From Candidatus Shapirobacteria bacterium (GTDB lineage Bacteria; Patescibacteriota; Microgenomatia; UBA12405): a stretch of DNA of 64,000 nt. Positions 1,095-55,251 of the stretch are shown piece after piece (within the stretch, counting starts at the first letter, position 1; each line of letters starts with the position of its first letter). A model generated the notes under the pieces. It had not been told where the DNA came from, searched no databases, and worked only from the letters and a program-made list of their open reading frames with translations. Made by a program: the position numbers and the translations under genes. The DNA lies in NCBI GenBank assembly GCA_028704635.1, contig JAQWFB010000002.1:128693-192692 (forward strand). The letters run 5' to 3'.

Positions 1095-1143
1095 GACTTT
1101 TATATTATATCAATTAAATTAAAATCCCTCTCGGCTTCGCCGC

Positions 1144-1167
1144 TTCTCCCTTTGACTAAAGGGAGAC
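1144..1167. repeat. Palindromic element (short form) TCTCCCTTTGACTAAAGGGAGACT
   Basis: The TTGAC/GTCAA-centred inverted repeat shared by the element family. Confidence 0.6.
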
Positions 1168-1183: not shown

Positions 1184-1236
1184 GGCCCCCTTTTGTCAAA
1201 GGGGGCAAACGAACGAAGTGAGTTGGGGGATTTTTA
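1184..1236. repeat. Palindromic element GGCCCCCTTTTGTCAAAGGGGGC + AAACGAACGAAGTGAG + TTGGGGGATTTTTAC
   Basis: Has the same tripartite structure and CGAAC.AAGTGAG middle as the copy at 35482-35530. Confidence 0.75.
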
Positions 1237-12751: not shown

Positions 12752-12803
12752 GCCTCCTTTTTCAAGGGAGGTGCCCCGCCAGCTGGCGGGGCGGAGGGTT
12801 TTT
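12752..12803. repeat. Palindromic element, intergenic (between DedA and GH18)
   Basis: GCCTCCTTTTTCAAGGGAGGTG + CCCCGCCAGCTGGCGGGG + CGGAGGGTTTTTAT. Confidence 0.8.
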
Positions 12804-12804
12804 A

Positions 12805-13950
12805 TCAAAATGATTTCATTATTTCCCATACTCTCTTGTCCTCCCCTTCGTATCCCAATGCCCAAAATCCTACTCCTCCCAACTGATTTTGTTTCACCAA
12901 ATCCAATTTTGCTTTCAAACTTCTCTCATTTTCAAAATATATTTGGTGTATTTCTCCACCTTCTTCAAACACCACCCACGGCGTCATCGATAATTCATCC
13001 CAATTAACCATCAAATTACTTGATGAACCTGATAAACTTTCTGACTTGATTAACTCATTTACTCTATTCCAACTAGCCATTTGATACCAACCTCTAATCA
13101 CTGGAGCTTCAAAATCTTTTGTATAAGTTTTCCATTCATATCCATAAAGCGGATAAACCATCACTATTTTTTCTTTATCAAAATTTAGACTTAAAATTTT
13201 TTCTACCACTTCCATTATATTTCTGTCTCCAACCTCTGATTGCATCGGTGCCACTGCTCCAGCATAATCCACCCCTGGTCGATGAAAATCATAAGCCATG
13301 ATAATTAAATTATCAACTGAATTAATTAGACTATTAATTTGCTCCGCCGATCCCTTATTAATAGTATTTACAAAAACATCTAAACTAATTTCTCCCAAAC
13401 CACTTTCTTTTAATTTAGCCATAAAACCAATCATTTTTTCCGATAAAACTGCCGTTGGATTTCCCTGATATTCAAAATCCACATTAATCCCATCAAACTT
13501 TTCCGTTTGCCGAAGAGTTTTTAATTGATTAATCAAATTATTTTGGGCTTCAATCGAAGCCATTAAACTATCAATTTTTTCATCAGTAAATAATTTAATT
13601 CCCAAAATATTTTTCCCGCCATTTTTCCAAATCAAATCTTTTTGCTTTAAATAAGTTTCATTATTTATTTTTTTCGATTGACCATCCCAAATCAAATTTC
13701 CTTTTTCATCCACTTCCACTCCCAAAAAAATCAGATAATCAACTTCATTAGTATATTCAATTGTTTTCCCAATCATCCAAGTTGGCAAAAAACCAAATAC
13801 TTTAATAGAAGCTCCCCTGTCAAGGGGAGATGCCCACAGGGCAGAGGGGTTTGTTCCTTTTGGATTTAAAATTTCTATATTTCCATTCCAATAAAAATAT
13901 CCCGCTAATATTATCAAAAATAATCCCAAACCCAAAAAAACCTTTTTCAT
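12805..13950 (-). CDS. Secreted glycoside hydrolase family 18 (chitinase-like) protein
   Basis: Has a signal peptide and the GH18 catalytic motif DGINVDFEY (DxxDxDxE), plus MAYDFH and LGGVGFWALG. It carries an in-frame palindromic-element insertion near the N-terminus (13812-13853). Confidence 0.7.
   Translation of the reverse strand: MKKVFLGLGLFLIILAGYFYWNGNIEILNPKGTNPSALWASPLDRGASIKVFGFLPTWMIGKTIEYTNEVDYLIFLGVEVDEKGNLIWDGQSKKINNETYLKQKDLIWKNGGKNILGIKLFTDEKIDSLMASIEAQNNLINQLKTLRQTEKFDGINVDFEYQGNPTAVLSEKMIGFMAKLKESGLGEISLDVFVNTINKGSAEQINSLINSVDNLIIMAYDFHRPGVDYAGAVAPMQSEVGDRNIMEVVEKILSLNFDKEKIVMVYPLYGYEWKTYTKDFEAPVIRGWYQMASWNRVNELIKSESLSGSSSNLMVNWDELSMTPWVVFEEGGEIHQIYFENERSLKAKLDLVKQNQLGGVGFWALGYEGEDKRVWEIMKSF
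13812..13853. repeat. Palindromic element inside the GH18 gene, in frame (encodes NPSALWASPLDRGAS)
   Basis: CTCCCCTGTCAAGGGGAGATG + CCCACAGGG + CAGAGGGGTTTG. Confidence 0.8.
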
Positions 13951-15096: not shown

Positions 15097-15135
15097 TCCC
15101 TCTTGTCAAAGAGGGATTTAGGGAGATTGAGCAAG
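15097..15135. repeat. Palindromic element (short form) that forms the C-terminal codons and stop of the RimK-like gene (15118)
   Basis: TCCCTCTTGTCAAAGAGGGA + TTTAGGGAGATTGAGC. Confidence 0.7.
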
Positions 15136-16126: not shown

Positions 16127-16184
16127 TCTCCCTTTGTTAAGGGGAGATGTCTCTCGCTACGCGAGAGACAGAGAGGTTTTTTAT
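16127..16184. repeat. Palindromic element, intergenic
   Basis: TCTCCCTTTGTTAAGGGGAGATG + TCTCTCGCTACGCGAGAGA + CAGAGAGGTTTTTTA. Confidence 0.8.
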
Positions 16185-17566: not shown

Positions 17567-17616
17567 GCCTCCCTTCTTCAAGGGAGGCTCCCGGATTTAT
17601 CGGGTGGTGGGTTTAG
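17567..17616. repeat. Palindromic element, intergenic
   Basis: GCCTCCCTTCTTCAAGGGAGGCT + CCCGGATTTATCGGGTG + GTGGGTTTAG. Confidence 0.8.
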
Positions 17617-20902: not shown

Positions 20903-22383
20903 TGAAACGACTTTTAATCGTTTTATTATTTTTCTTATTTTTATTCCCCTCCTTGTCAAGGGAGGGGTCAGGGGTGGGTTTTGTTTATGCCCAATCAACT
21001 ACTATCACTGAAAATCAAACTACTACAACCACTACCCCTCCAGAAGAAAGTTTATTGACTAAATTTTGGAGTTGGATTTCCAAAGTTTTTATTAAAACTG
21101 ATTACACCATCGCCCAACGACCATCCGATGAAATTAATTCTGACATGACCGACTATGATACTGCATCCGACAACCGTAAACACTCTTCCTCTGGTACTCG
21201 TCTTACTGACTCTTCCAGTCAAACTTGTTACAAAGGCAATGTTATCAAAAAAGTTATTTTAGGTGAATACCAAGATTCCGACATTTCTCACATTTGTCCC
21301 GATCCATCAGACTCAAACAAATGTATTGTTTCGTCCGATTCAACTTGTAAACTAATAAAAATTAGTGATCTCGCTCATTATTTTGTTCAAACTCAAAAAC
21401 AATTTTATTGCGCAGGAAATAAATTAACTAATACTGAAAGTAATGTTATCGATAAAGTTAATGAAAAATATTCCAATTCCATTTCCTCTAATGACTTAGA
21501 TTGCTACCAAACTATTTACAACGATTTTTATTTAGTTCCCAAAGAAAGTGTTGAAAATGAAGAAAATTCCAAAAACATAGTTCAAACTCCTATTTCTGCC
21601 GGTGATCAAAAATCAGGTTCCATTAGTGATACTAAAGATCAGCTTAATAAAAATTTTGTTCCCGCTAATCAAAGCTGGGATGGTTTAAGTAGTCTTCGTC
21701 CCCAAAGTTGGGGTAAAGGTTCATCGGGAATTAGTTGGGGTACTAGTGGTGAATTTAACGGTGGTGGTACCAGTTCTGGTACCTGTAATGCCATTGATAG
21801 CCACTGTCGAGGCATGAGCCTTTACGGTGCTCTCGGTCTTTCTCAATCAGGTAAAAATTACGAAGAAATTCTTAATTTTTTTTATGGCAGTATCTCTCTA
21901 AAAACTATTAATACTTCCAATACTAATATTTCTGTTAAAACCGACAGTAACGACGATTGCTCTAGTTATCAACCATTAAATCTTGAAACTTACCTTAGTG
22001 GTCTTGGAGAAATGTCTGATTATTGGGGTGATCCTAGCACCAACGGCTATGAGAGCATGAAAGCTTTAGTAGTTGCTGCCCGTACCTATGCTTATGTTGC
22101 CACCCAAAATTTCACCCAACCAATCTGTAGTAATTCCAATTGTCAAAATTTTCATTGCAGTGTTATCAAAACTAAACCTAATTTAGATCGAGCCATCAAA
22201 GAAACTCAAGGTCAAATTATTGTCGATAGCACTAATCAAACCCCATTTTTAACCGAATACGCTCGTTCATTTTGTGGTCCATCTAAAACTGTTGTTTTTT
22301 CCAACCACACCAATACTTCAGTCAATGGTTATGAATATGAACTCAAAGCTCTCAGCGGCGACTCCCCATTCTGCCTCAATTAA
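20902..22383 (+). CDS. Secreted Cys-rich protein with a C-terminal SpoIID/LytB-like domain (putative cell-wall lytic factor)
   Basis: Has a signal peptide and a Thr-rich linker (TTTITENQTTTTTTPPEE). Near the C-terminus the motifs ESMKALVVAARTYAYVATQN and CQNF match the SpoIID signature. The signal-peptide region contains an in-frame palindromic element (20945-20985). Confidence 0.5.
   Translation: MKRLLIVLLFFLFLFPSLSREGSGVGFVYAQSTTITENQTTTTTTPPEESLLTKFWSWISKVFIKTDYTIAQRPSDEINSDMTDYDTASDNRKHSSSGTRLTDSSSQTCYKGNVIKKVILGEYQDSDISHICPDPSDSNKCIVSSDSTCKLIKISDLAHYFVQTQKQFYCAGNKLTNTESNVIDKVNEKYSNSISSNDLDCYQTIYNDFYLVPKESVENEENSKNIVQTPISAGDQKSGSISDTKDQLNKNFVPANQSWDGLSSLRPQSWGKGSSGISWGTSGEFNGGGTSSGTCNAIDSHCRGMSLYGALGLSQSGKNYEEILNFFYGSISLKTINTSNTNISVKTDSNDDCSSYQPLNLETYLSGLGEMSDYWGDPSTNGYESMKALVVAARTYAYVATQNFTQPICSNSNCQNFHCSVIKTKPNLDRAIKETQGQIIVDSTNQTPFLTEYARSFCGPSKTVVFSNHTNTSVNGYEYELKALSGDSPFCLN
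20945..20985. repeat. Palindromic element inside the SpoIID-like gene (encodes PSLSREGSGVGFV in the signal-peptide region)
   Basis: CCCCTCCTTGTCAAGGGAGGGG + TCAGGGG + TGGGTTTTGTTT. Confidence 0.75.
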
Positions 22384-26336: not shown

Positions 26337-26406
26337 TCCCTCTTTGACTATCACTCCCTTTTCAAGGGAGGGAAATCCCGCATCTGCGGGATGGGTGGGT
26401 TTTATA
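26337..26406. repeat. Palindromic element(s) in the 5' region of the 26344 ORF (encode PFSREGNPASAGWVGF)
   Basis: CCCTCTTTGACTATCACTCCCTTTTCAAGGGAGGGA + AATCCCGCATCTGCGGGAT + GGGTGGGTTTTATAG. Confidence 0.8.
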
Positions 26407-31987: not shown

Positions 31988-32030
31988 CGCCCTTTTTAAG
32001 GGAGGATGTCCGCAGGACAGGAGGGTTTTA
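31988..32030. repeat. Palindromic element, intergenic (between ftsH and the RNHCP gene)
   Basis: CGCCCTTTTTAAGGGAGGATG + TCCGCAGGACA + GGAGGGTTTTAT. Confidence 0.75.
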
Positions 32031-32360: not shown

Positions 32361-32400
32361 TCTCCCTTGTCAAAGGGAGATTTAGAGGGATTGGTTTTTA
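32361..32400. repeat. Palindromic element (short form), intergenic
   Basis: TCTCCCTTGTCAAAGGGAGA + TTTAGAGGGATTGGTTTTTA. Confidence 0.7.
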
Positions 32401-35400
32401 TTTTCCCAACTCCACTCCCATCCTAATATCCTTATTCAATTTCTGATTAAACAATAATTTTCCCCCCACCATACTCGCCTGTGGTTCTACTTGTAATGGT
32501 TGCCAATCTCTTGGAAAAGATACCAACGTCACTAATCCAGTATCTCCAAATCCAGATTGTTTCTGGACATAGCTTATATAAGAAAATTTATCTTTACCTG
32601 TCAAATTATTTGCACTAGAATATTTTATTTCCACTGTTTCTTTACTCAAAATTGGTACTGCCACCAAAAACCCCACTTCTTTTTTTCCATTAATTTCCTT
32701 GATTCTAATTTCATCAGCTGTATAAATTTTTCTTGAATTAGTCTTATCATCAATCACACTAATTTGCGATAAATTAACATCAATTGGTAAATAAATTCTT
32801 AAATAATTTTTATATTCGCCACCCGGAAAATCATTACTTTTAGCCATATTTTCATAATTAACCTTCAATGTCCTCTCCACTAAACTTTCATTAATATCTA
32901 CTACCTGTTCCATACTTCTAGATAAAAAATAATTTGTTTTATTCACCCCAAAATTAGAATCCACTACAAATAAATAATCTGAAAAACAATTCTCTTTTGT
33001 ACATTTTCCTTGATACATTGTTCCATCCCATCCTAAATCAGCCGCCAATTTAGCTATTTTACCATTATTAAAAGCCAATTGGATTTCATTTTTTTCCAAT
33101 AAATCCACTAAAGAAGAAACTAATTCTAATTGTTGTTTTGCTTTTAATCCCTTTATTTCTTCAAACATCTGACTTCCTAAAGTTCCTAAAAAACTCGCCT
33201 TCTGGGTCGATCCCGGAAAAAATTTACTTTCCGAATAATATTCCGCTTGTTCATATAAATTATCCTTAGTAATTTTTTCTTTAAAATCGGTCACATTAAT
33301 TTCTCCAATCACCCCTACAATTGCTTTCGCCACTGCCAAATTAATTCCAATCACCCCATCTACTTTTTTATTAATTTCTTGACTCAAAAACCATTGAATA
33401 TCTGCTGAAGCCTTTACAAAATCCGGATTCCAATTAGCATCTCTCATAAACCAGTTTGCTTCTCCCAAATAATTTTTTATTTCTATTGGCGGTTCCACAT
33501 GTCCTTTTAACTGACCATCAGCTTCATAAACATCTTTCACTTCAAAATTCAAAAGTTTTCCATTTTGAAAACTCAAAATTGCATAACTTCCAATAAATCC
33601 TCCTGTTGCTCGCAATTCCGCTTCATTTTGAAGTAACACTAAATATTCCCTCTTTCTTCCATCTAAACCCAACATTTCTGGCAAAATTTTCATTCCTTTC
33701 GACACTAAATTCAATTTTTCTTTTATTTCCTTTAAACCTTGGGCTTCTTTTTGCAAAGATATTCTCCATTTTGCCGGCATCCAGCTATAATCACCATTCA
33801 GTCTTGCTAAAACCAAACCCAACTCATTATCAAAATTAATTAAATATTCCTCTTCTTTACTTAACTCGTCAGAAAAATTTATTTCTCTTTCTTTAAAAAT
33901 TGCCTGGCTTATTAAATCCGCACTTTGACTAATTACAATCGCATCTTTTTCTAAATTTAAAACATCTTCCCCTATTTTAAGTAACGTTTGATAATTTCTA
34001 ACTATTTTAAATTTATTCAACCCCCAATCATCAATTTGCTGATCAATATCTTTGATCCTAATTAAATTTTTATCCGCCAAAATTTCTACCTGCTTATATT
34101 TTTTCGCTTCAATTAAAGTTACATTTTCTTTAATATTATTACAAGCCAAAACTGTTAATATCGTCCATTTTACAGGCAATATTAATAACAAAACTACTAA
34201 AAATAAAACCCACCACTTCAATTTGGCCGAAATTTTCAAAACTGGCATTTTTCTTTTCGGTTTTACTTCCACTTCTTTTTTAATCCCTCCATTTTCAAGG
34301 GAGGGAAATTCCGCTACAGCGGAATGGGTGGGTTTTATTATTTCATCTTCAAAACTATCGTCAAATTCCTCAATAATTTTTTTTGAATTCTCCCTTTCTT
34401 TAAGGGGAGATGTCTCCGCAATAGCGGAGACAGAGGGGTTTTGAATTGACTTTACTTTCTCAACCTCCAACCCCATCTTTTTTTGCTTATAAAAACTTTC
34501 TATCTCTTCCATCGGCTCCTCGTTCTTAATCTTAACTTCTTCTTGTTCATCTTCCACTACCACTTCCATCTTTCTTTTATTAACTTCCTTTTTAATCGGT
34601 TCCGACTCTTTTTTTATAGCCTCCCCTGTTTCAGCCAAAGGCTGATCGGCCTCTGGTCGAAAGGGAGGTTTGGAGGGTTTTTTAGGTTTTCTACTTTCTT
34701 CATCAGCCCTCGAAAAAAAATATTGCAAAGTTTCTGTTATTCCACCTTTAAAATCACTTTTTGGCTCCCATCGTAATTTTCTTACTGACTCCCTTAGTCT
34801 TTCCTCATCGATTTTTTCAATTTCAATCTCCTTTTGCATCACTTTATACCTTGTCATTTTTGCCTCATCTATCAACACTTTTGCCACTTCCTCACTATTT
34901 GTTTCCTCCCCTAAAATCAAAAATTTCTCCTTCTCTGTTCCCGATAAAAAACTCGCTCTTAAAATTGCTTCAACCAAATCTTCGATTGCTAAAATTCTAA
35001 ATTTACTTTTTAAACTTGGTAACACCAAATTTTTATTAACTACCGCCAATTTTATTGCCTCTGCTAAAAAATTATTTTCATCCATTCCTGGACCATAAAC
35101 TCCCTCTGCCTCCACCATTCTCCAATTTAAATTTAAATCATCTAAATCATCTTTTAAAAATTCCGCTCTCTCTCTATCGTTCACACAAACTAAAGTAATT
35201 TTTTCCCCTTTAAACTGATCTGTTTTCCACAGGTTTTTATCTCCCAAAAAATCAAAAACATAATTAAATTTACCACTAACTTCCGACAAATCCATCAATA
35301 ATTCAAAATTCTTTATATCACTTAATCCTGCCACATATTCCCCTACCCCGACCACATTTATATCTTTATTTGATAATTCTTCCGCCAACTTTTTAGCCGC

Positions 35401-35448
35401 AAATTGATCTATCCCAATAATTAAAGCGTAAGGCAATGCCGGATTCAT
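32398..35448 (-). CDS. Large membrane-anchored DUF4012-domain protein (cell-envelope associated). It has an N-terminal Rossmann-like domain and a long low-complexity linker.
   Basis: The C-terminal domain carries the DUF4012 signature LLQNEAELRATGGFIGSYA. There is a single TM helix around aa 410. The linker region contains four in-frame palindromic elements (34284-34684). Confidence 0.6.
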   Translation of the reverse strand: MNPALPYALIIGIDQFAAKKLAEELSNKDINVVGVGEYVAGLSDIKNFELLMDLSEVSGKFNYVFDFLGDKNLWKTDQFKGEKITLVCVNDRERAEFLKDDLDDLNLNWRMVEAEGVYGPGMDENNFLAEAIKLAVVNKNLVLPSLKSKFRILAIEDLVEAILRASFLSGTEKEKFLILGEETNSEEVAKVLIDEAKMTRYKVMQKEIEIEKIDEERLRESVRKLRWEPKSDFKGGITETLQYFFSRADEESRKPKKPSKPPFRPEADQPLAETGEAIKKESEPIKKEVNKRKMEVVVEDEQEEVKIKNEEPMEEIESFYKQKKMGLEVEKVKSIQNPSVSAIAETSPLKERENSKKIIEEFDDSFEDEIIKPTHSAVAEFPSLENGGIKKEVEVKPKRKMPVLKISAKLKWWVLFLVVLLLILPVKWTILTVLACNNIKENVTLIEAKKYKQVEILADKNLIRIKDIDQQIDDWGLNKFKIVRNYQTLLKIGEDVLNLEKDAIVISQSADLISQAIFKEREINFSDELSKEEEYLINFDNELGLVLARLNGDYSWMPAKWRISLQKEAQGLKEIKEKLNLVSKGMKILPEMLGLDGRKREYLVLLQNEAELRATGGFIGSYAILSFQNGKLLNFEVKDVYEADGQLKGHVEPPIEIKNYLGEANWFMRDANWNPDFVKASADIQWFLSQEINKKVDGVIGINLAVAKAIVGVIGEINVTDFKEKITKDNLYEQAEYYSESKFFPGSTQKASFLGTLGSQMFEEIKGLKAKQQLELVSSLVDLLEKNEIQLAFNNGKIAKLAADLGWDGTMYQGKCTKENCFSDYLFVVDSNFGVNKTNYFLSRSMEQVVDINESLVERTLKVNYENMAKSNDFPGGEYKNYLRIYLPIDVNLSQISVIDDKTNSRKIYTADEIRIKEINGKKEVGFLVAVPILSKETVEIKYSSANNLTGKDKFSYISYVQKQSGFGDTGLVTLVSFPRDWQPLQVEPQASMVGGKLLFNQKLNKDIRMGVELGK
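34284..34338. repeat. Palindromic element inside the DUF4012 gene (encodes KPTHSAVAEFPSLENGG)
   Basis: TCCCTCCATTTTCAAGGGAGGGA + AATTCCGCTACAGCGGAAT + GGGTGGGTTTTAT. Confidence 0.8.
34389..34444. repeat. Palindromic element inside the DUF4012 gene (encodes QNPSVSAIAETSPLKE)
   Basis: TCTCCCTTTCTTTAAGGGGAGATG + TCTCCGCAATAGCGGAGA + CAGAGGGGTTTTG. Confidence 0.8.
34618..34684. repeat. Palindromic element, long variant, inside the DUF4012 gene (encodes KPSKPPFRPEADQPLAETGEA)
   Basis: CCTCCCCTGTTTCAGCCAAAGGCTGATCGGCCTCTGGTCGAAAGGGAGG + TTTGGAGGGTTTTTT. Related copy at 55144-55208. Confidence 0.8.
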
Positions 35449-35481: not shown

Positions 35482-35530
35482 GCCTCCCTGTCAAGGGAGG
35501 TGTCGAACAAAGTGAGACGGAGGGTTTAAA
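35482..35530. repeat. Palindromic element, intergenic
   Basis: GCCTCCCTGTCAAGGGAGGTG + TCGAACAAAGTGAGA + CGGAGGGTTTAAAT. Confidence 0.8.
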
Positions 35531-35652: not shown

Positions 35653-35700
35653 TCACCCTGTTAAGGGAGATGTCTCGTAGCTGCGGGACAGAGGGTTTGA
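35653..35700. repeat. Palindromic element, intergenic
   Basis: TCACCCTGTTAAGGGAGATG + TCTCGTAGCTGCGGGA + CAGAGGGTTTGAAC. Confidence 0.8.
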
Positions 35701-37176: not shown

Positions 37177-37223
37177 CCGCCCTGTCAAGGGAGGTGCCCC
37201 ACAAAGCGGGGCGGAGGGTTTAA
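37177..37223. repeat. Palindromic element, intergenic (between the flippase and the ligase-like gene)
   Basis: CGCCCTGTCAAGGGAGGTG + CCCCACAAAGCGGGG + CGGAGGGTTTAAAC. Confidence 0.8.
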
Positions 37224-38458
37224 ACCAACCCCAATACTAATACTAACAACCAAACGTTTTGTGGTAAGGTCAACCAATAATGATCAACCATTCCACTTAT
37301 AATCACTATTCCTAAAATTATTTTAAAAATCCAATTTATTTTTTTTCTAGAAAAATTTTCACTAAAAAACAAAAACATTAAAGATAACCCCAATATTCCA
37401 ATCTCACTCCAAGCCAATATTAAAACATTATGAACCGGTTGTAACCAAAAAATTCCATTATTTTTCTGAAACTCGGGTAATCTCACTAAAAAATTACCCA
37501 AACCTACTCCAAATAAAGATGATTCTTTTATCATTTTTAATCCAGCTACATTTAATTGAATTCTTTTTCCAATTCCATCAGAATCCCATCCGCCTAAAAA
37601 ATCAGACACTTGATATTCCATATTTACCAATCTCAATCCAAAAATTATCACTCCCAAAACCAATAATATTAAACCCACAATATTAACCTTATTTTTTATA
37701 TTTTTTAATAAAAACCAAAAAATTAAACCCAAAGTCAAAATCCAAATTGTTCTACTCCCCGAAACCATTATTCCCAAAAATCCAAACCAAAAAACCATCC
37801 ACCACCAAGTCTTATTTATTTTCTCTCTTAACCACCACCATAATAATAAACTCACTAATAAAAATCCTGCCAAACTATTTGGGTGAGAAAAAGTTCCATA
37901 AGCTCTAATTAAACCTTTTCCAAAAACTGACATTTGGGCAATTCCAATTGTATTAAAACTAAAACTTCTTTCCCCTAACCAATAAAAAATTCCATTTAAA
38001 CTTCCACTTTTAGCCATTTGGGCCATCGCCAATAAACTCTCTAAAATGATCCAACAGGGGATAATTTTTATCAAATTTTCCTTAACTAATATTTTATTTT
38101 TTCTAAAATAAAAAAACGTTATCAATAATTGAACCACCCTTAACCATTTATAAACAGCCACCCACGGATTCACCGCCATCAAAATATTTATCCCCACAAA
38201 CACCGCTATTAAAAAATATTTAAATTTAAAAATTTTAGAAAGTCGCCCTGTCAAGGGAGATGTCCGCAGGACAGAGGGTTTAATCCAATTAAAAATCAAA
38301 ACTACCCAAACCAAATCTAATAAATACAAAGTAGGGGATAAATAATCAATTCTAATTCCCATTAAATAACTCCACTCTGGCCAAAAATGTTTACCTAATT
38401 GGGTCGGAATTAAAAGCAAAAATAAAAATAACCACACAACCCAATATAACACAATCAA
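37220..38458 (-). CDS. O-antigen ligase-like (Wzy_C) membrane protein
   Basis: Polytopic protein with a Wzy_C-like loop motif GTFSHPNSLAGFLLVS. Contains an in-frame palindromic element (38243-38283). Confidence 0.5.
   Translation of the reverse strand: MIVLYWVVWLFLFLLLIPTQLGKHFWPEWSYLMGIRIDYLSPTLYLLDLVWVVLIFNWIKPSVLRTSPLTGRLSKIFKFKYFLIAVFVGINILMAVNPWVAVYKWLRVVQLLITFFYFRKNKILVKENLIKIIPCWIILESLLAMAQMAKSGSLNGIFYWLGERSFSFNTIGIAQMSVFGKGLIRAYGTFSHPNSLAGFLLVSLLLWWWLREKINKTWWWMVFWFGFLGIMVSGSRTIWILTLGLIFWFLLKNIKNKVNIVGLILLVLGVIIFGLRLVNMEYQVSDFLGGWDSDGIGKRIQLNVAGLKMIKESSLFGVGLGNFLVRLPEFQKNNGIFWLQPVHNVLILAWSEIGILGLSLMFLFFSENFSRKKINWIFKIILGIVIISGMVDHYWLTLPQNVWLLVLVLGLV
38243..38283. repeat. Palindromic element inside the O-antigen-ligase-like gene (encodes KPSVLRTSPLTGRLS)
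   Basis: CGCCCTGTCAAGGGAGATG + TCCGCAGGAC + AGAGGGTTTAATC. Confidence 0.8.
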
Positions 38459-38463: not shown

Positions 38464-38511
38464 CGCCCCTGTTAAGGGGAGATGTCCCGCAAACGGGACA
38501 GAGGGGTTTAA
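38464..38511. repeat. Palindromic element at or just upstream of the start of the ligase-like gene
   Basis: CGCCCCTGTTAAGGGGAGATG + TCCCGCAAACGGGA + CAGAGGGGTTTAATTC. Confidence 0.8.
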
Positions 38512-39019: not shown

Positions 39020-39071
39020 GCTCCCTTGTCAAGGGGAGCTGTCCCGATTTATCGGGACTGAGGGGTTTTAT
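39020..39071. repeat. Palindromic element covering the last codons and stop of yidC
   Basis: GCTCCCTTGTCAAGGGGAGCTG + TCCCGATTTATCGGGA + CTGAGGGGTTTTATTT. Confidence 0.8.
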
Positions 39072-40381: not shown

Positions 40382-40392
40382 TTATACTAAAA

Positions 40393-40565: not shown

Positions 40566-40607
40566 GCCTCCCTGTTAAGGGAGGTGCCCGCAGGGCGAAG
40601 GGTTTAA
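40566..40607. repeat. Palindromic element, intergenic (between rpmH and dnaA)
   Basis: CCTCCCTGTTAAGGGAGGTG + CCCGCAGGG + CGAAGGGTTTAATTT. Confidence 0.8.
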
Positions 40608-40619
40608 TTTGATATCTTT

Positions 40620-40680
40620 TCTTTTGTGGAAAACTCATCTAATATAAACATTACCCCAATCGATTTTTCCACAATTTCGA
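40620..40680 (+). promoter_or_regulatory. DnaA-box-like sites (TTTTCCACA, present twice) in the dnaA upstream region
   Basis: TGTGGAAAA at 40625-40633 (reverse orientation) and TTTTCCACA at 40665-40673. Each has one mismatch to TTATCCACA. Confidence 0.4.
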
Positions 40681-40738
40681 TTTTAAATTCCTGCCTATTT
40701 AACCGTTATTTTTTATGTTGTAAATTTTACAATCCATT

Positions 40739-42082
40739 ATGGATAATATTGAAAGAATTTGGAAAAATACTCAAGAAGAGTTAAAAATAACTCTTGCTCC
40801 AGCTATCTTTCAAACCTTTGTTCTAAAAACCCAATTAATTAGTCTCGAAAACAATCTTGCCATTATCGGTTGCCCTAATACCTACTCTGTTGATTTTAAT
40901 AAAAAACGCCACTACGACATCATTAAAAACGCCCTCGATAATCAAACTAAAAACGACAACACTCTTAATTTTATTGTCCAAGAAAATTTAAAAACTGATT
41001 TTGACACCACCAACAATACTCCACTTTTTTCCTATTCTCCCAACAGAGCTAATAATTCTTTTCTTCACCCCAAATACACTTTTGAAAACCTAATTGTCGG
41101 CAATAGTAATAACTTTGCCTTCGCTGCTGCTCAAGGTATTATTAAAAACCCCGGTCTTTCTTACAATCCTTTCTTTATTTGGGGTGGAGTAGGGGTTGGA
41201 AAAACTCACCTTATGCAAGCTATCGGCCATGAACTTCTTAAAAATAATCCTGATTTAAAAATAAAATATTTCTCCGCCGAAAATTTTGGCAATGAGTTGG
41301 TCAGTGCCCTTAAAACAAAAACCATGAATCAATTTAAAGAAAAATACCGTAATTTAGACTGTATTCTTGTTGACGATATTCAATTTATTGCCGGTAAAGA
41401 ATATACCCAACAAGAATTTTTTCACACTTTTAATGCTCTCCATATGAACGGTAAACAGGTCATTTTAACCTCCGACCGTAAACCTAGCGAGATTGACCAT
41501 CTTGAAGATCGTCTTGTCTCTCGTTTTATGGGTGGATTAACTGTCGACATCCAGCTTCCCGACTATGAAATGCGTATTGCTATTATCAGCCAAAAAATCG
41601 AAGAAAAGGGGATTAATATTACCCCCGAAGCTGTTGAATTTTTAGCCAACAATATTGAATCAAACATTCGTGAAATTGAAGGTAAGCTTCAACAAATTTC
41701 CGTTCAATCTCTTTCTCAACAAACAGAGGAAATTGATCTTTCTTTTGTTCAAAACTTTTTTAATCCAAACCTACGAACCAACACCTACGAACCAACCCCT
41801 AAATTAAACCCTCGTCATATTATCTCTGTCTGCGCTAAACATTTTAATATTAAAACCAGTGACCTTTGTGGAAAAAGTCGCAAGAAAGAATTAGTCACCG
41901 CTCGTCATATTACCGCCTACTTACTTCTAACCCAAATAAACCTACCTTTAGAAGAAGTTGGCCATCTCCTTGGTGGTCGTGACCACACCAGTATTATGCA
42001 CGCTCGAGACAAAATTCAAAGTGACTTTTCCACTAATCCACAAACCCGACAACTTATCAACCAAATTAAAAACACTTTTTAA
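40739..42082 (+). CDS. dnaA: Chromosomal replication initiator DnaA
   Basis: Walker A (GGVGVGKTHLMQAIG), the sensor motifs and a C-terminal DNA-binding domain (HTSIMHARDKI). Confidence 0.95.
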   Translation: MDNIERIWKNTQEELKITLAPAIFQTFVLKTQLISLENNLAIIGCPNTYSVDFNKKRHYDIIKNALDNQTKNDNTLNFIVQENLKTDFDTTNNTPLFSYSPNRANNSFLHPKYTFENLIVGNSNNFAFAAAQGIIKNPGLSYNPFFIWGGVGVGKTHLMQAIGHELLKNNPDLKIKYFSAENFGNELVSALKTKTMNQFKEKYRNLDCILVDDIQFIAGKEYTQQEFFHTFNALHMNGKQVILTSDRKPSEIDHLEDRLVSRFMGGLTVDIQLPDYEMRIAIISQKIEEKGINITPEAVEFLANNIESNIREIEGKLQQISVQSLSQQTEEIDLSFVQNFFNPNLRTNTYEPTPKLNPRHIISVCAKHFNIKTSDLCGKSRKKELVTARHITAYLLLTQINLPLEEVGHLLGGRDHTSIMHARDKIQSDFSTNPQTRQLINQIKNTF

Positions 42083-42393
42083 TCCCAAAAAAGTTTTCCA
42101 CTTTCTACCACCACTTATCCACATTTTTATCCACAATCACTATTATCTTTTTCCCCCGAAGTTTACCCAAACTCAAAATCAAATTATAAGCTACAACTAC
42201 TCTTTTTTACCCAACATTCAATCATTTTTTATTTTCTAACACTCTAACTAATTCAATTAGAACACAACTTTCCATTATTTTTAAAACTACCCCACTTATC
42301 AACACTCTCTACTAATCATTACTACTATTTTTGATATTAAATATCTTTATTAACAACCTTTAAACCCAAATCATTTTTTGATAATATAAGTCA
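42083..42393 (+). promoter_or_regulatory. Putative oriC: AT-rich dnaA-dnaN spacer with two perfect DnaA boxes
   Basis: TTATCCACA occurs at 42115-42123 and at 42127-42135. The region is about 80% AT and contains further near-boxes (TTATCAACA at about 42293). Confidence 0.65.
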
Positions 42394-43512
42394 ATGAAAC
42401 TTTCCCTTTTACAAGAAAATTTAAACACAGCCCTAACCAATGTTTCTCGATTTGTCTCTTCTAAAAATCAACTACCTATATTAAATAATATTTTATTATC
42501 AACCGATAATGGTCGACTTAAACTTTCAGCTACCAACTTAGAATTAAGTATTAATTATTGGATCGGAGCCAAGATCGAAGAAGAGGGGACAATTACTATT
42601 CCTTCAAAAGAAATCACCGAGTTTGTTTCATATTTAACTCCCGGAAAAATCGATCTATCTCTAAAAGGAAACAATCTTTTAAATTTATCTTCATCAAAAA
42701 CCGAGTCAACTTTCACTACTAATCCTTCTACTGATTACCCTGATTTTCCCACTCTCAATCCAGACACCTGTTTTGAACTAGACTTAAATGTTTTAACCCA
42801 AGCCGTTTCCCAAATCGCTTTTTCTGCCGCCACCGACGATACCCGTCCAGTTTTAACTGCCATTCTTTGCCAGTTTACTTCTGATAGTTTAAATTTAGTT
42901 GCCACCGACGGTTTTCGTTTATCTTTTAAAAATATTAAATTAATTAACCCTATTGATTTAAAAACCGACCAAATCACTTTTTTAATTCCTGCCAAAAGCC
43001 TTTTAGAGGTCACTAAACTCGCTAAAACCAACACTAAAATTAAAATAGGCTTAACATCTGATGAACATCAAGTAGTCTTCGTTCTAGACGATGTAGAGTT
43101 GGTCTCTCGACTTATTGAAGGGGAGTATCCCGCCTACCAAAGAATTGTTCCAGAATCTTTTTCCACCAAAGTCTTTCTAAATAAAGACGAATTAACTCAA
43201 GCTGTTAAAATCGCCTCTGTTTTTGCCAAAGAATCAGCCAATATTGTTCGTTTTAATATTAAAACTAATTCTATTGAACTTACTGCTAATGCTCCTCAAA
43301 TTGGCCAAAATAAGGCCACCATTGATGCTAAAATCGAAGGCGAAACCCTGGAAATTGCCTTTAATTATAAATTCTTAATGGATTTTCTCAGTGTTTGCAA
43401 AAGCCAAGAAATTATTATTGAATTAAACGAATCCTTAACCCCAGCCTTTTTTCATGACCAATCAGATAAAGATTTTTCTCACATCATCATGCCTGTCCGT
43501 CTCCAAGACTAA
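42394..43512 (+). CDS. dnaN: DNA polymerase III beta sliding clamp
   Basis: 372 aa with a three-domain beta-clamp architecture, immediately after dnaA. Confidence 0.9.
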   Translation: MKLSLLQENLNTALTNVSRFVSSKNQLPILNNILLSTDNGRLKLSATNLELSINYWIGAKIEEEGTITIPSKEITEFVSYLTPGKIDLSLKGNNLLNLSSSKTESTFTTNPSTDYPDFPTLNPDTCFELDLNVLTQAVSQIAFSAATDDTRPVLTAILCQFTSDSLNLVATDGFRLSFKNIKLINPIDLKTDQITFLIPAKSLLEVTKLAKTNTKIKIGLTSDEHQVVFVLDDVELVSRLIEGEYPAYQRIVPESFSTKVFLNKDELTQAVKIASVFAKESANIVRFNIKTNSIELTANAPQIGQNKATIDAKIEGETLEIAFNYKFLMDFLSVCKSQEIIIELNESLTPAFFHDQSDKDFSHIIMPVRLQD

Positions 43513-45981: not shown

Positions 45982-48570
45982 TTAAACAATCCCGTCTCCA
46001 AATAATTTATCATAATCCATTTTATTGTCTTCTTTTTTAATTTCTCCCATATTTTTTTGCCCTCCATTTTCAAGGGAGGGTGACCCCGCAGCTGCGGGGG
46101 CGGGTGGGTTTATTTCAAACACCGGCTGCGGTTTTCTCGCTAATTGAGGTGGCTGAGGTATTCGCTGTTCCTCAGTTTTAATAAAAATTGGTTTTTTTAT
46201 CTCATTTTGGTCAACCGCTACTTCTGGTCTTTTAAATAATACTGATTCAGTTTTCATTTCCGGTTTCACTTCCATCATTTCAATTTTCCTGTCAATAGAA
46301 TTATTTTGTGGCAACACTACTGGAGGTTTTTCATTAACTTCCACTGTTTTTAAATCCAAGACATCAACTTTAGGGGTAAAATTAACAGTTTTAATTTCTG
46401 TAGTTTTTAAAGGTTCCTCTTTATCAAATGGAACTAGTCCTACAGCTGTCGAGACAGAGGGGTTCTGAACTGGTTTTACTTCAATCGGCTTAATTTGAGG
46501 CTCCACTACCGGTTTAACTTGAACCGGAATTTTGTTTTCAATCTCTACCGTTTTTATTTCTGGAATATTAATTTTTGGTGCTACTTCAACTTTTTGCGGT
46601 TCAACAGGTTTATTTATTGGAGGTAATGTCGATGGAAATGTTTTGAAATCTTCCTTGTCTCGGACATAATCCGATCCGCCTGTGGCGGAAAAAGGAGATT
46701 TAGAGGGATTTTGAAATGGTTTCGTTTCTATTGGCTTAATTGGTGGCTTCATTCCATTATTTGGCTTTTGATCACTCAAAAAACTTTGCTTTTTTAAGAT
46801 ATCTTCCGGATTTGAAGTAATCAAATTATGTTCATCCACCGAAGCAATTATTTGAATTGCCACATGATTTTGACCAGCAAAAAAGATTCCTTCACCTTTA
46901 CTTGCTGATAATAATAATTGCTTTTCTCCATCACTCAAATAAAATACCTCACCAATTTGATCAATCGCCGCACTATGCTGTTTTAATAAAATTTGAATTG
47001 AGCTATTAGTCACTATTTCTTTACCATAAGCAGTCCTTAAAAAGTCATCCACGTCCTGAGTTATTGTTGTTACTCCCAAATAATATTTTCTTCCTCTTTT
47101 AACAATTCCTCTCAAAAATTCCGCCGAATCATCATGTTGCATTAAATACCAGGCTTCATCCACCACTAATATTCTTTTTTTCAATGTTTTTTTAACCATT
47201 GTCCAGATATAATCCAAAATAATTTGCATTGCCACTGGTCTTAATGCGTCCTCTAAGTTTCTAATTCCAAAAACCACAAATTTATTCGTTAAATTAACTG
47301 TTGTTTTTTGATTAAAAATCCCCGAAAACGACCCTTTAATATATTTTTCCAGTCTGGCTGCCAACCCTTTGGCCTTTTCATCCTCCATCCCAATCAAAGA
47401 TTTGTATAAATCTTCAATTAATGGTGGTTCTTTGTCTTGAGTTGCTGGATCAGGAGTAATCCCTTTCATTTTATAAGCATCCATCATTGCTCGATCCATA
47501 ATCGATTCTTCAATTGGATCCATCTCACCCAACATCACTTTTAATAATTTATGTAAAGATAAAATTTTAGTATTTAAACCATTTTCACCTTGTTCTTCAG
47601 CTAAAGTTAAATCAAACGGATTAATTTTAGAACCTTCACCATAACCGAAGGCAATATATTGACCGCCAGAATTATCACACAATTCCTTATATTCATTTTC
47701 TGGGTCAATTACAATAATATCTGTCCCCATCATTAATGATCGAAGAACTTCCAATTTAATCAAATAAGACTTACCAGCCCCAGCCATAGCAAAAACCACT
47801 GAGTTATAATTTGGCATTGAAAATCTATCAAAAATTACCAACGATCCATTATGCATATTAATTCCATACATTATTCCCTGATCATCCGATAAATCTGATG
47901 ACACAAAAGGGAAAGTAGTTGCCAAAGAAGTCGTATCCATATTTCGACTAATTGCCAATCTGTCTTGGCAAATCGGCAAAGTTGACACAAACCCATCTTC
48001 CATTTGCAACGTTGCCTTTTTACTTATAATCAACAATGCCCCCAAGGCTGCTTCTAAATTTTTATTCACTCTATCCAATTCCACCACTGAATCCGCTGTT
48101 ATTGTCACATAAAGTCCAAATTGAAAAAATCTTTCTTCACCTTTAACCAAATTAGCTTGTAAATTTAACGCATCCTCTAATTTTGCCTGTGTTGCCGGAT
48201 TAATCAATCGACCCCTTTGAATATCAGTGCTCAGCTCGGCTTCCATTTCTGTAATTTTTCGTCGAAGATCATCTAAAACTTCCTTTCCATCGGTTGGATA
48301 AATAAACATTGAAATATTTAAAGAAGAATCAAAATTAATCAACGATGATAGCCAATTAATTCCTACAAATCTTGGATATGCCGCCACAAATAAAGTTCGA
48401 TAATATTTATTATCAATTCTAATATGATTAAAATCCACTTCTAGAGCCGATGGGGCAATTATATCCTTAGTTGTTACCAACCCTTGAGTAAATTCTCTTT
48501 TATTAGGATCCACTATCGGTGTTGGTTCTGAATTATTTGCTGTTGTATTTTTTTTATTAAAAAATTTCAT
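45982..48570 (-). CDS. VirB4/TrbE-family type IV secretion ATPase with a roughly 260-aa proline-rich C-terminal extension
   Basis: Walker A (VVFAMAGAGKSYLIK), Walker B (RILVVDEAWYLMQ) and overall VirB4 architecture. The tail contains three in-frame palindromic elements. Confidence 0.8.
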   Translation of the reverse strand: MKFFNKKNTTANNSEPTPIVDPNKREFTQGLVTTKDIIAPSALEVDFNHIRIDNKYYRTLFVAAYPRFVGINWLSSLINFDSSLNISMFIYPTDGKEVLDDLRRKITEMEAELSTDIQRGRLINPATQAKLEDALNLQANLVKGEERFFQFGLYVTITADSVVELDRVNKNLEAALGALLIISKKATLQMEDGFVSTLPICQDRLAISRNMDTTSLATTFPFVSSDLSDDQGIMYGINMHNGSLVIFDRFSMPNYNSVVFAMAGAGKSYLIKLEVLRSLMMGTDIIVIDPENEYKELCDNSGGQYIAFGYGEGSKINPFDLTLAEEQGENGLNTKILSLHKLLKVMLGEMDPIEESIMDRAMMDAYKMKGITPDPATQDKEPPLIEDLYKSLIGMEDEKAKGLAARLEKYIKGSFSGIFNQKTTVNLTNKFVVFGIRNLEDALRPVAMQIILDYIWTMVKKTLKKRILVVDEAWYLMQHDDSAEFLRGIVKRGRKYYLGVTTITQDVDDFLRTAYGKEIVTNSSIQILLKQHSAAIDQIGEVFYLSDGEKQLLLSASKGEGIFFAGQNHVAIQIIASVDEHNLITSNPEDILKKQSFLSDQKPNNGMKPPIKPIETKPFQNPSKSPFSATGGSDYVRDKEDFKTFPSTLPPINKPVEPQKVEVAPKINIPEIKTVEIENKIPVQVKPVVEPQIKPIEVKPVQNPSVSTAVGLVPFDKEEPLKTTEIKTVNFTPKVDVLDLKTVEVNEKPPVVLPQNNSIDRKIEMMEVKPEMKTESVLFKRPEVAVDQNEIKKPIFIKTEEQRIPQPPQLARKPQPVFEINPPAPAAAGSPSLENGGQKNMGEIKKEDNKMDYDKLFGDGIV
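46059..46111. repeat. Palindromic element inside the virB4 tail (encodes PAPAAAGSPSLENGG)
   Basis: CCCTCCATTTTCAAGGGAGGGTG + ACCCCGCAGCTGCGGGGG + CGGGTGGGTTTATTTC. Confidence 0.8.
46438..46468. repeat. Partial palindromic element inside the virB4 tail (encodes VQNPSVSTAVGLV)
   Basis: TCCTACAGCTGTCGAGA + CAGAGGGGTTCTGAAC. Confidence 0.65.
46674..46722. repeat. Partial palindromic element inside the virB4 tail (encodes FQNPSKSPFSATGGSD)
   Basis: TCCGCCTGTGGCGGA + AAAAGGAGATTTAGAGGGATTTTGAAATGG. Confidence 0.65.
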
Positions 48571-54255: not shown

Positions 54256-55134
54256 ATGCCAGAACTTCCCGAAGTTGAGGTCGTCCGACTTTTTTTAGAC
54301 AACCATTTAATTGGTAAAACTATTTCTAATTTAGAGATTTTAAATAAAAAATCCTTCACTGGCGATCCAAAAAAAATAATTAATCAAAAAATCACCAAAA
54401 CTTCTCGTATTGGCAAACAGCTCTCAATTCATTTGAAAAATAATTTAATTCTTCTTTTTCATCTCAAAATGACCGGCCAAATTATATACAGTCCCCTTTT
54501 TTCAAGGGGGATGCCCGCAGGGCAGGGGGTTTCAACATTTGGTCATCCCACTCCCAAAGAAGATAAATCAACTTTACCCAATAAATCCACTCGTCTCGTT
54601 TTTACTTTTTCCAATGGTTCTAAATTATTTTTTAACGATCAACGCAAATTTGGCTGGGTTAAACTTTTTACCTCTAACGAACTCGATGACTCTCAAAAAA
54701 ATCTTGGTCTTGATATTTTAAGTTCCAAATTTACCTCTAAATATTTTTATCAGCAAATTCAGAATACTACTCGTCCTATTAAAGTAGTTTTACTCGATCA
54801 ATCTAAATTTGCCGGCATTGGCAATATTTATGCCAACGATGCCCTCTTTTTATCCAAAATTAATCCACAAACACCTTCAAATAAAATTAGTTTTAAAAAA
54901 GCTTTGCTTCTACACCATTTTTTAATCCAAATTATGACCGAGTCTATTAAAGCCGGTGGTTCCACTGCCAAAGATAATAAATATATTCACCCCGATGGTT
55001 CCAGTGGTCAACATCAATTTAATTTTCAAGTTTACCAACGAGCTGGCGAACCTTGTTTAGTTTGTCAAACTCCAATTAAACGAATCACTCTCGCCGGCCG
55101 CGGCACCTTCTATTGCCCCAAATGTCAAAAATAA
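54256..55134 (+). CDS. mutM: Formamidopyrimidine-DNA glycosylase (Fpg/MutM)
   Basis: Starts MPELPEVE with the catalytic Pro2. Shows the H2TH region and a C-terminal zinc finger (CLVCQTPIKRITLAGRGTFYCPKCQ). An in-frame palindromic element lies at 54491-54534. Confidence 0.9.
   Translation: MPELPEVEVVRLFLDNHLIGKTISNLEILNKKSFTGDPKKIINQKITKTSRIGKQLSIHLKNNLILLFHLKMTGQIIYSPLFSRGMPAGQGVSTFGHPTPKEDKSTLPNKSTRLVFTFSNGSKLFFNDQRKFGWVKLFTSNELDDSQKNLGLDILSSKFTSKYFYQQIQNTTRPIKVVLLDQSKFAGIGNIYANDALFLSKINPQTPSNKISFKKALLLHHFLIQIMTESIKAGGSTAKDNKYIHPDGSSGQHQFNFQVYQRAGEPCLVCQTPIKRITLAGRGTFYCPKCQK
54491..54534. repeat. Palindromic element inside mutM, in frame (encodes SPLFSRGMPAGQGVSTF)
   Basis: GTCCCCTTTTTTCAAGGGGGATG + CCCGCAGGG + CAGGGGGTTTCAAC. 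Confidence 0.85.
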
Positions 55135-55143
55135 AAAGACTAC

Positions 55144-55208
55144 CTGTCTCAGCCAAAGGCTGATTGGCCTCTGGCCAAAAAGGAGGGGTTAGGGGTGGAT
55201 TGGTTTTT
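55144..55208. repeat. Palindromic element, long variant, intergenic (between mutM and iscS)
   Basis: CCTGTCTCAGCCAAAGGCTGATTGGCCTCTGGCCAAAAAGGAGG + GGTTAGGGGTGGATTGGTTTTTT. Confidence 0.8.
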
Positions 55209-55251
55209 TAATTCTTGACAACCTTTCTATATCGGACTAAAATAGTCCAGT

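Follow-up and report, generated by a model that had tools for sequence, protein, structure and literature searches.

A stretch of 64,000 nucleotides (nt) from Candidatus Shapirobacteria bacterium (contig JAQWFB010000002.1), termed the window below, carries an intact mutM/fpg open reading frame (ORF) for the DNA-repair glycosylase MutM (Fpg), and a short GC-rich insert lies within this gene. We consider it highly probable that the insert, at 54488-54537, belongs to a dispersed family of GC-rich DNA elements of Shapirobacteria, and that this copy entered mutM in frame, at a hot-spot site, and is carried there as a tolerated passenger. Positions 54491-54534 read GTCCCCTTTTTTCAAGGGGGATGCCCGCAGGGCAGGGGGTTTCA. 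The insert is in a 60-nt patch of 57% G+C, compared with ~34% G+C for the gene and the genome. The full copy (54488..54537, plus strand), as delimited from the sequence and from alignment with the related locus L161, consists of ACAGT, a pyrimidine (Y) arm, a loop, a purine (R) arm, a mini-hairpin, a mirror arm and TTTCAACA. Its 5′ ACAGYC and 3′ GGGTTTNAAY flanks are common to the intergenic copies of the family.

The extent of the insert is given by comparison with empty alleles, i.e., those without the element. The element-derived peptide is YSPLFSRGMPAGQGVST, which comprises 17 residues (Y78-T94) coded by 54487-54537, that is, T54487 plus the element. The sequence FGHPTPKEDKSTLPN is native to this Fpg lineage and is found in all close homologs that have no element; the empty homologs read ...HLKMTGQIIL-GDFVF-GHPTPKEDKSILPNKSTR.... 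The closest allele, P0002 (280 amino acids, aa), matches the window protein fully outside of the loop region and has the empty form LGDFV; it displays LGDFVF where the window protein displays YSPLFSRGMPAGQGVSTF. Relative to LGDFV the protein gains 12 residues net (36 nt). In the DNA, 51 nt of the filled allele take the place of the 15 nt (TTAGGAGATTTTGTT) of the empty allele L161, and no target duplication is visible in the alignment of the two. The preliminary description of this DNA had counted ~17 element-encoded residues. This number holds for YSPLFSRGMPAGQGVST, but FGHPTPKEDKSTLPN is native and the net gain is only 12. The E. coli loop LPEELPPEK, which it had taken as the baseline, was a wrong choice, as the lineage has a longer native loop, and the gain is 12 and not ~22.

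The mutM ORF (54256..55134, plus strand, 292 aa) has no break, starts with MPELPEVE, ends with CxxC...CxxC and contains ...HLKMTGQIIYSPLFSRGMPAGQGVSTFGHPTPKEDKSTLPNKSTRLVFTFSNG.... Its identification comes from the ORF list, Pfam, matches in the Protein Data Bank (PDB), AlphaFold and Foldseek. A Pfam scan shows the three domains of Fpg, all above the cut-offs: the N domain (Fapy_DNA_glyco, PF01149, residues 1-134, 97.9 bits), H2TH (PF06831, 87.6 bits) and the Fpg zinc finger (PF06827, 38.4 bits). The element insert falls within the PF01149 match. In a PDB search the best solved relatives are MutM/Fpg enzymes (E 3e-42), and the HMMER alignment breaks precisely at the insert, with residues 78-110 of the query opposite 10 residues (83-92) of Geobacillus stearothermophilus MutM. 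Residues P2, E3, E6, K54, M72, R130, F132, N190 and R282, as well as the zinc-finger cysteines C267, C270, C287 and C290, are invariant in 83 MutM homologs, filled or empty. The protein thus has the catalytic N-terminus of Fpg (Pro2-Glu3, in PELPEVE), the three-domain architecture with a four-Cys zinc finger, and the Lys and Met/Arg/Phe triad, the residues of which align with the HLRMEG and RKFG motifs of MutM. From published MutM structures we take K54 to be the active-site Lys and M72, R130 and F132 to be the intercalating triad. Since the insert leaves catalytic centre, DNA-binding loops and zinc finger untouched, the enzyme would very probably still work. That a repeated element had inserted in frame into the N-terminal domain, leaving frame, Pro2 and zinc finger intact, had been proposed from the sequence at the outset; the unbroken ORF, the Pfam matches, the empty relatives and the residues invariant in the 83 homologs all agree with it.

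The insert folds into two hairpins at the DNA level. In hairpin 1 the Y arm CCCCTT (54493..54498) and the R arm AAGGGG (54504..54509), both located by DNA folding and by the motif scan, enclose the loop TTTTC (54499-54503). Mini-hairpin 2, TGCCC-GCA-GGGCA (54512..54524), was located by DNA folding and is a module that varies between alleles. Mini-hairpins with C-GNA-G loops (GCA, GAA) are unusually stable DNA hairpins. The third arm, GGGGG followed by TTT (54525..54532), was located by the mirror test described below, by the scan and from the sequence; within it GGGGTT (54526-54531) is AAGGGG mirrored, with T for A, and forms a reverse-Hoogsteen-type arm. All of these are on the plus strand. 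With programs that consider only Watson-Crick pairs, the folding energy is -9.8 kcal/mol (z -2.7) as DNA and -19.2 kcal/mol (z -2.0) as RNA. When the same peptide was recoded synonymously 2000 times, only 11 of the variants folded as well in DNA form, and G+C at third codon positions (GC3) is 0.50 in the insert compared with 0.26 in the remaining mutM; therefore the peptide does not dictate the nucleotides of the insert. All three sense-direction frames of the copy are open.

The same parts recur throughout the family in a fixed order on one strand: a Y arm, a TTGTCAA-like loop, the complementary R arm, an optional GC mini-hairpin, a mirror arm and a T run. The 5′ flank is ACAGYC-like, a typical Y arm is CCTCCC with GGGAGG as the R arm, and the loop is often TTGTCAA or TGTTAA. 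The mini-hairpin sequence is exchangeable, with TGCCC-GCA-GGGCA in mutM and GTCCCGATTTATCGGGAC or CCCCGCAGCTGCGGGG in other copies. The second G-rich arm, which neither complements nor directly repeats the first, is its mirror image (G for G, A or T for A) and is followed by TTT. The two arms covary, as in the pairs GGGAGG and GGAGGG, GGGGAGA and AGAGGGG, GGGAAGG and GGAAGGG, AAGGGAGA and AGAGGGAT, AAGAGGGGG and GGGGGAGAT, and AAGGAGGGG and GGGGGTGGA, with at least 7 arm types in total. The term palindromic, first applied to the element, says too little; the element as a whole is a hairpin, a mini-hairpin and a mirror-repeat (triplex-type) motif.

The mirror relation was assayed with 44 unique hairpins from the window and 46 related loci, all with a purine arm that is asymmetric and 6 nt or longer. 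Downstream of 18 of the 44 there is a full-length mirror match, and downstream of one a full direct match. The mirror score exceeds the direct score 25 times and falls below it 4 times. This rules out a reading of the two G-rich arms as direct repeats or as Shine-Dalgarno-like sequences. A Y arm, an R arm and a third arm are present on one strand (CCCCTT, AAGGGG and GGGGTT in the mutM copy), and with G.G-C and A/T.A-T triads the third arm would be antiparallel to the purine arm, as expected of a mirror repeat. The element thus carries the signature of a class II purine-motif intrastrand triplex, and it may form such a triplex. Class II triplex repeats are the BoxC/PIT/TMECO sequences of E. coli and relatives, which have been linked to genomic instability (Holder et al. 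2015, PMC4666352). RNA does not take up the purine motif (PMC4666352), and this points to a structure at the DNA level.

Scans for GC patches and for the architecture reveal approximately 25 copies in the 64-kb window, or about one per 2.5 kb. Under strict criteria, the whole three-arm motif is matched 16 times on the plus strand, compared with 0-1 in 30 block shuffles; the shuffled sequence gives 0-1 matches per strand. Thus the element is not a product of chance. Searches of the window with an exact 37-mer, or with 3 mismatches allowed, return only the mutM copy itself, as the family is too degenerate for that approach. At the gathering threshold, Rfam finds only rRNA, 5S and two tRNAs in the window, and no family for the element. 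The copies are ~30-60 nt in length and modular. The element is GC-rich and therefore poor in stop codons: 55 of 72 frames on its own strand are open, compared with 45% for random 45-mers.

In three other genes of the window the element is read through in frame, on the opposite strand. The copy in radA (gene 5371..6714, minus; element 5518..5551, plus) is read in reverse as STPTPSFDKEGRK and stands opposite an 8-residue gap in Streptococcus pneumoniae RadA (5LKM). In RadA orthologs the loop SSYKEKPL..VxVGEV is empty in many, and in others is filled with diverse element-derived peptides that add from roughly 8 to more than 40 residues, including tandem fillings of ~40 or more. The tail of a TraG/VirB4-like ATPase (45982..48570, minus) has one fresh copy at the C-terminus (46060..46103, plus), read as NPPAPAAAGSPSLENGG, and two that appear decayed (QNPSVSTAVGLVPFDKEE, QNPSKSPFSATGGSDYVRDKE). 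A DUF4012 protein ORF (32398..35448, minus, 1016 aa) has three copies in a K/E-rich linker, all with the element on the plus strand: 34284..34331, 34389..34437 and a nested double-hairpin variant at 34617..34679. The repeat is thus found within ORFs with the frame kept and is missing from orthologs in mutM and radA, with two further genes that have copies.

A DNA comparison of 45 related mutM loci shows at least 5 element subtypes at the same MutM turn. The subtype CCCC(C)TT/AAGGGGG, with differing mini-hairpins, is found in the window and in L002, L012, L014 and L095; CCTCCCC/GGGGAGG in L001 and L013; CCTGCCC/GGGAAGG in L093; and TCCCCCCTTT.../AGGGGGGATTT in L102. A short subtype, TCTCCCTTGTCAAAGGGAGATTTAGAGGGATT, is found in L101 and has nested derivatives in L099 and L107; it is near-identical to the intergenic window copy at 32361-32391. 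The mini-hairpins of other alleles include TGACC-GAA-GGTCA, CCCCGAATATTCGGG and TCGC-GAA-GCGG, and each is self-complementary. In L001, L002, L012, L013, L014, L024, L083, L092, L093, L095, L099, L101, L102 and L107 the peptides differ, while the arms (Y, R and mirror) remain matched and the mini-hairpin remains paired; two alleles, L016 and L098, appear decayed. Judging from these sequences, it is the ability of the DNA to pair, and not the peptide, that is conserved among the alleles. The subtypes carry their own family-typical 5′ flanks (AAGTC, CAGCC, ACAGT), and their junctions with the gene differ by 0-3 nt. These differences suggest several independent insertions at the turn and not one ancient event.

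Among the 120 best homologs, which are Candidatus Shapirobacteria where named and have a modal length of 280 aa, 36 are filled at the same turn, a share that is inflated. Fitch parsimony requires 30 filled/empty changes on a neighbor-joining tree built without the loop, and the nearest neighbors of filled alleles are mostly empty. A single ancient insertion with vertical descent is thus unlikely, given the subtypes with their own flanks and the 30 changes. The empty GDFVF/GEFVF alleles are also not excision products, since homologous DRFVGGHP/EDFGGGHP sequences are found in distant MutM proteins of the Candidate Phyla Radiation (CPR). The YEGVSL-type alleles (L004, L106) retain only the 3′ end of the element (GAGGGGGTTTC) and look like partial deletions. 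Two other variable sites of MutM may be mentioned. A patch after the insert, residues 99-109 (54550-54582), varies in homologs irrespective of whether the first site is filled or empty, and its PKEDKSILPN is replaced by PLHSFSEGWPN, PNLPAEALAKVG or KDAFGDLPN in some of them. A second loop of the N domain (FSN-GSK-LFFND) carries elements in the more distant relatives L013, L014, L100 and L102.

The window and the empty allele L161 form the closest filled/empty pair, and their comparison shows 18 differing sites, of which 17 are within a 139-nt tract (54483..54621); the two alleles are otherwise nearly identical. The insert region is 59/60 identical to that of L162, while the rest of the L162 gene is only ~85% identical. 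The mosaic tract suggests allelic exchange by homologous recombination. The mutM insert is a segregating and apparently recombining allele at a recurrent hot spot and not a fixed feature. The empty site TTAGGGGAGTTTGTTTTTGG resembles the third arm and tail of the element, e.g., GAGGGGTTTGTTCCTTTTGG at 13838-13857, and this resemblance of the target may explain the hot spot. However, a selection filter, by which insertions survive only in permissive turns, would also concentrate matches there.

In AlphaFold models the insert exchanges a two-residue β-turn (L-GD-F) for a 13-residue flexible loop. The empty P0002 (pLDDT, the predicted local distance difference test score, 85.8) is modeled with a tight β-hairpin of strands 75-78 and 81-84. 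In the model of the window protein (mean pLDDT 83.9, predicted template modeling score, pTM, 0.79) both strands are kept (74-79 and 93-96), and the 13-residue loop that links them has pLDDT below 50 at residues 83-88. Foldseek aligns this model with MutM/Fpg structures at template modeling (TM) scores of 0.78-0.88. The hairpin that has the insert begins directly after the wedge residue Met72, and from the topology its tip would be ~6 residues along the strand from the DNA-contacting end. The position is apparently tolerated: the models place the insert in a surface loop and leave the catalytic and DNA-binding parts untouched. Modeling and a comparison with relatives had both been proposed in the preliminary description. 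The first places the insert at a turn, and not in a core strand or in the active-site cleft, and the second yields filled as well as empty alleles, with all 17 of the related DNA alleles that have an element at this site in frame.

All but one of the ~25 copies share one orientation, irrespective of the strand of the genes, and from 5.5 to 55 kb the G-rich strand is the plus strand in every case. Genes on the plus strand contain or flank three copies, two are located between divergent genes, and the others have minus-strand genes around them. In the related loci, copies are always co-oriented with mutM. The orientation bias follows the chromosome strand rather than transcription. The plus strand is strongly C-skewed across at least 60 kb (1 to 60 kb), with GC skew values between -0.15 and -0.49, including around dnaA-dnaN at 40.7-43.5 kb, and by the usual skew rule the plus strand is the lagging-strand sequence. 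A local stretch of positive skew at 60-64 kb gives way to negative values at 64-66 kb, past the window; a further co-oriented copy lies ~2 kb past the window (L164:13717-13772), in a called queH gene. A replication origin at ~60 kb, where the skew turns positive, is ruled out by the return to negative values at 64-66 kb and by the same orientation of the element there. It should be noted that the window has an origin-region gene set at 38517-43512, with jag/R3H and yidC followed by the divergent dnaA (40739..42082) and dnaN (42394..43512). There is no change of sign in the GC skew at dnaA within 20 kb on either side. Thus, over this range at least, the genome does not switch its skew at dnaA. 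A general role as intrinsic terminator is ruled out by the single absolute orientation beside genes on either strand; in addition, two copies are between divergent genes, and the third arm separates the T run from the last stem.

The sequence of events we favor is that a structure-forming DNA repeat inserted at a β-turn of mutM, where the frame and a stop-free sequence would let it be translated as a floppy surface loop, in an enzyme that most probably works. Filled and empty alleles are both present among strains that are nearly identical, and homologous recombination appears to shuffle them. The filled allele would persist, recombine and be re-created by new insertions. The following points weigh against this reading. 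The two alleles do not differ by a plain addition of 36 nt; 15 nt are swapped for 51 nt, without target duplication. The triplex is deduced from the symmetry of the sequence; in the mirror test, G-rich arms of low complexity readily yield part of the mirror signal, and copies with a common origin do not count as independent. The proportion of 36/120 filled homologs is biased upward, because searches favor words of the filled query, of which KMTGQIIY is one pattern. L161 is a 935-nt contig of 0.55x coverage, and the mosaic could be a chimeric assembly of two strains. The functional state of MutM is deduced from intact residues and models, and the distance of the loop from the DNA is argued from strand topology. 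Finally, locus L024, of a distant relative, shows that the element can break mutM: there the gene is split by an element at the second loop into ORFs 3001..3378 and 3351..3923, which overlap in different frames, either by a real frameshift or by a sequencing error in a G run.

A more active role is conceivable, though we regard it as unlikely. The element would be a strand-specific, self-propagating module, in which the folded hairpin-plus-triplex picks sites similar to its own 3′ arm; at mutM the empty sequence GGGGAGTTTGTTTTTGG mimics the third arm and T tail. Such a module would recolonize the β-turns of mutM and radA, its alleles, some of them frameshifted, would spread by recombination, and it could modulate the mutation rate of these reduced genomes.

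It is quite improbable that the insert acts in mutM as a cis nucleic-acid signal, either by pausing of the polymerase or ribosome, or by slippage at G5-G7 runs that would switch the gene into a reversible mutator state. The two stable hairpins, with the DNA and RNA folding energies given above, would suit such a signal, as would the presence of copies with G runs in two DNA-repair genes of the window (mutM and radA) and the frameshift within the element in L024. In vitro, triplex repeats stop polymerases, and a link with instability is also on record (PMC4666352). However, copies are also found in unrelated genes and are mostly intergenic, so that there is no specificity for repair genes. In addition, G5 runs are short for efficient slippage, L024 is the only frameshifted example and possibly a homopolymer sequencing error, and a purine-motif triplex would be lacking in the RNA.

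The possibility that the insertion inactivated or crippled MutM, leaving a pseudogene in progress, also has little probability. Loss of repair genes is common in reduced CPR genomes, the element has broken mutM at a second site in L024, and the insert is only 6 residues past the DNA wedge residue Met72. However, the ORF is complete with every catalytic and zinc-binding residue kept, and the model retains the fold. Outside of the 139-nt tract there is 1 difference in ~800 nt relative to the empty allele, thus no sign of relaxed constraint, and filled alleles without frameshift are found in lineages down to ~60% identity.

Very little likelihood is given to an adaptive origin of the extra loop, e.g., as a new contact surface, whereby the repeat was exapted and selection now acts on the peptide. 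The frame is kept in every one of the 17 DNA alleles, and a peptide pattern, P-[LP]-x-S-[RK]-G...G-V-S, recurs in many homologs; yet this pattern is what the conserved nucleotides (CCC, TCAAGG, GGG GTT TC) encode, and the peptide is free to vary in its middle, even as complementarity of the DNA arms is maintained. The loop is predicted to be disordered, the closest relative is without the insert altogether, and intergenic copies are conserved as well as the coding copy. An assembly or binning artefact, in which a repeat copy was misjoined into mutM, can be dismissed for practical purposes, for although this is a metagenome-assembled genome (MAG) with many element repeats that can confuse assemblers, the identical 292-aa filled protein is found on three contigs or assemblies (including JAQVCE010000012.1), the same insert with the same junctions is in L162, from an independent sequencing run, variant inserts are found at the same codon in dozens of independent assemblies, and the 50-nt element is shorter than a read.

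The remaining copies of the window are as follows, on the plus strand unless noted. A variant element just past the mutM stop (55140..55209) has extra small hairpins, AGCCAAAGGCT and GGCCTCTGGCC, in loop 1, followed by GGAGGGG-TTA-GGGGTGG-ATTGGTTTTTT; the orthologous site in L162 has the simple form CCCTTCCTTATCAAAGGAGGGGTTAGGGGTGGATT. Short forms are found at 15097..15127 (GAGGGA-TTT-AGGGAG, without a mini-hairpin), at 20946..20977, between plus-strand genes, and at 32361..32391, the copy that resembles the L101 element. Intergenic copies are at 1186..1232 and 12753..12801, and copies in divergent intergenic regions are at 26354..26401 and, upstream of dnaA, at 40567..40603. Further copies are at 13812..13850, 16127..16178, 17568..17613, 31990..32026, 35483..35525, 35656..35698, 37180..37220, 38246..38281, 38466..38507 and 39021..39066. 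The only copy in the opposite orientation, at 1123..1166 (minus), pairs with that at 1186-1232. This inverted pair (1123-1232), with the two elements 20 nt apart, is downstream of rho (1234..2583, minus) and resembles inverted TMECO pairs of E. coli.

On the strand opposite to the element, loop 1 has the sequence TTGACA, and several minus-strand genes begin 20-40 nt past this sequence (sites 39021-38984, 35483-35448, 32361-32339 and 26354-26321). TGnTAAAAT-like -10 boxes at these genes are only 6-8 nt before the ATG. The spacing suggests leaderless mRNAs, perhaps with -35 boxes carried by the element. A separate GC-rich repeat of ~85 nt is present in two copies, 8212-8292 and 29917-29997, that are 87% identical in alignment and have the core CGCGCGCAACATCCGAGGTGCAATGCCGAAGGGCGTGAGCACG. 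One copy adjoins the 5S rRNA gene and the other is between converging genes; neither has a match in Rfam at the gathering threshold.

The in-frame insertion by itself is a curiosity of the type known from Rickettsia; of value to the specialist are the covarying triplex-type arms, the uniformity of strand and the repeated use of the same protein turns. The element is a clean natural case of a non-B-DNA (triplex-type) repeat written into proteins, and it extends to the CPR the intrastrand-triplex repeats that were so far intergenic curiosities of Proteobacteria and Cyanobacteria. With respect to protein evolution, loops of Fpg and RadA tolerate 8-45 extra residues, and variation of loop length in the CPR can stem from DNA elements rather than from selection on the protein. 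The modular mini-hairpin, the near-total strand bias and the recurrent use of the same sites are traits that constrain models of origin. For annotation, unrecognized elements inflate the apparent divergence of proteins and can create false frameshifts in MAGs.

The element shares traits with several known kinds of repeats. Literature searches found no description of such elements in CPR/Patescibacteria. REP/BIME sequences and REPINs with their RAYT transposases (PMC3116915) are likewise short, GC-rich palindromes with many copies and presumed DNA hairpins. However, REPs are extragenic by definition and have no mirror arm, and the Shapirobacteria element lacks a GTAG-type 5′ motif. No RAYT/IS200-like (Y1) or other transposase was found among the 30 window ORFs scanned against Pfam. 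A MITE (a miniature transposable element with inverted repeats) is ruled out, since the exchange of 15 nt for 51 nt left no target-site duplication and the ends, ACAGTC... and ...TTTCAACA, are not inverted repeats. Yeast mitochondrial GC clusters include an in-frame insertion reported in var1. These clusters and the double-hairpin or repetitive hairpin elements of fungal and sponge mitochondria (PMC4464245, PMC2800124) are similar in that GC-rich hairpins invade a very AT-rich genome, including its coding regions, are polymorphic between strains and are recombination hot spots. They differ in being organellar, in their unrelated sequence, and in that no triplex-type third arm has been described for them.

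In architecture the element is similar to BoxC/PIT/TMECO (Hoyne and Maher 2000; Holder et al. 2015, PMC4666352), whereby a Y arm, a loop, an R arm, a second loop and a reverse-Hoogsteen arm follow one another on one strand. Both have G/C-rich arms and, in the short forms, a second loop of TTA or TTT, as is seen by comparing GGAGGGG-TTA-GGGGTGG with GGGNGAGGG-TTA-GGGNGAGGG of TMECO. Both are strongly over-represented, occasionally form inverted pairs, come without a linked transposase and go together with local instability of the genome. TMECO is on record from Proteobacteria (262 genomes), and other G/C-rich triplex motifs from Cyanobacteria (PMC4666352). However, the arms of TMECO are 9 nt long with a fixed consensus, its copies always lie between genes and, in E. 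coli, they favor neither strand (PMC4666352), whereas the Shapirobacteria element has arms of 6-10 nt with many covarying sequences, a loop 2 that is often a GC mini-hairpin of 12-22 nt, a near-uniform orientation and copies that are translated inside genes. The mutM copy departs from the TMECO consensus, CCCTCNCCC N3-6 GGGNGAGGG N3 GGGNGAGGG, its second loop being a 13-nt hairpin plus 2 nt. By sequence, then, the element shares the class II triplex architecture and is not a member of the TMECO family.

In behavior, the closest parallel is with the Rickettsia palindromic elements (RPE), reportedly described by Ogata and colleagues in 2000, a work cited in PMC1779305 among other papers. Both are repeated, hairpin-forming, selfish-looking elements of an AT-rich reduced genome that are found in frame in many protein genes, where the ORFs stay open and the extra peptide is on the protein surface, and both also have copies between genes. 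RPEs differ in length (~100-150 bp), in their restriction to Rickettsia, in their unrelated sequence and in having no mirror (triplex) arm, whereas the Shapirobacteria element is ~30-60 nt and modular, is oriented one way in the genome and has entered the same loop repeatedly, as different subtypes. There is no sequence relationship to RPE families, the mutM copy being 50 nt of another architecture with no match in Rfam or elsewhere, and the likeness is functional only. By this analogy, the element most likely is a tolerated selfish or unstable DNA element of Shapirobacteria, a counterpart of the RPEs of Rickettsia.

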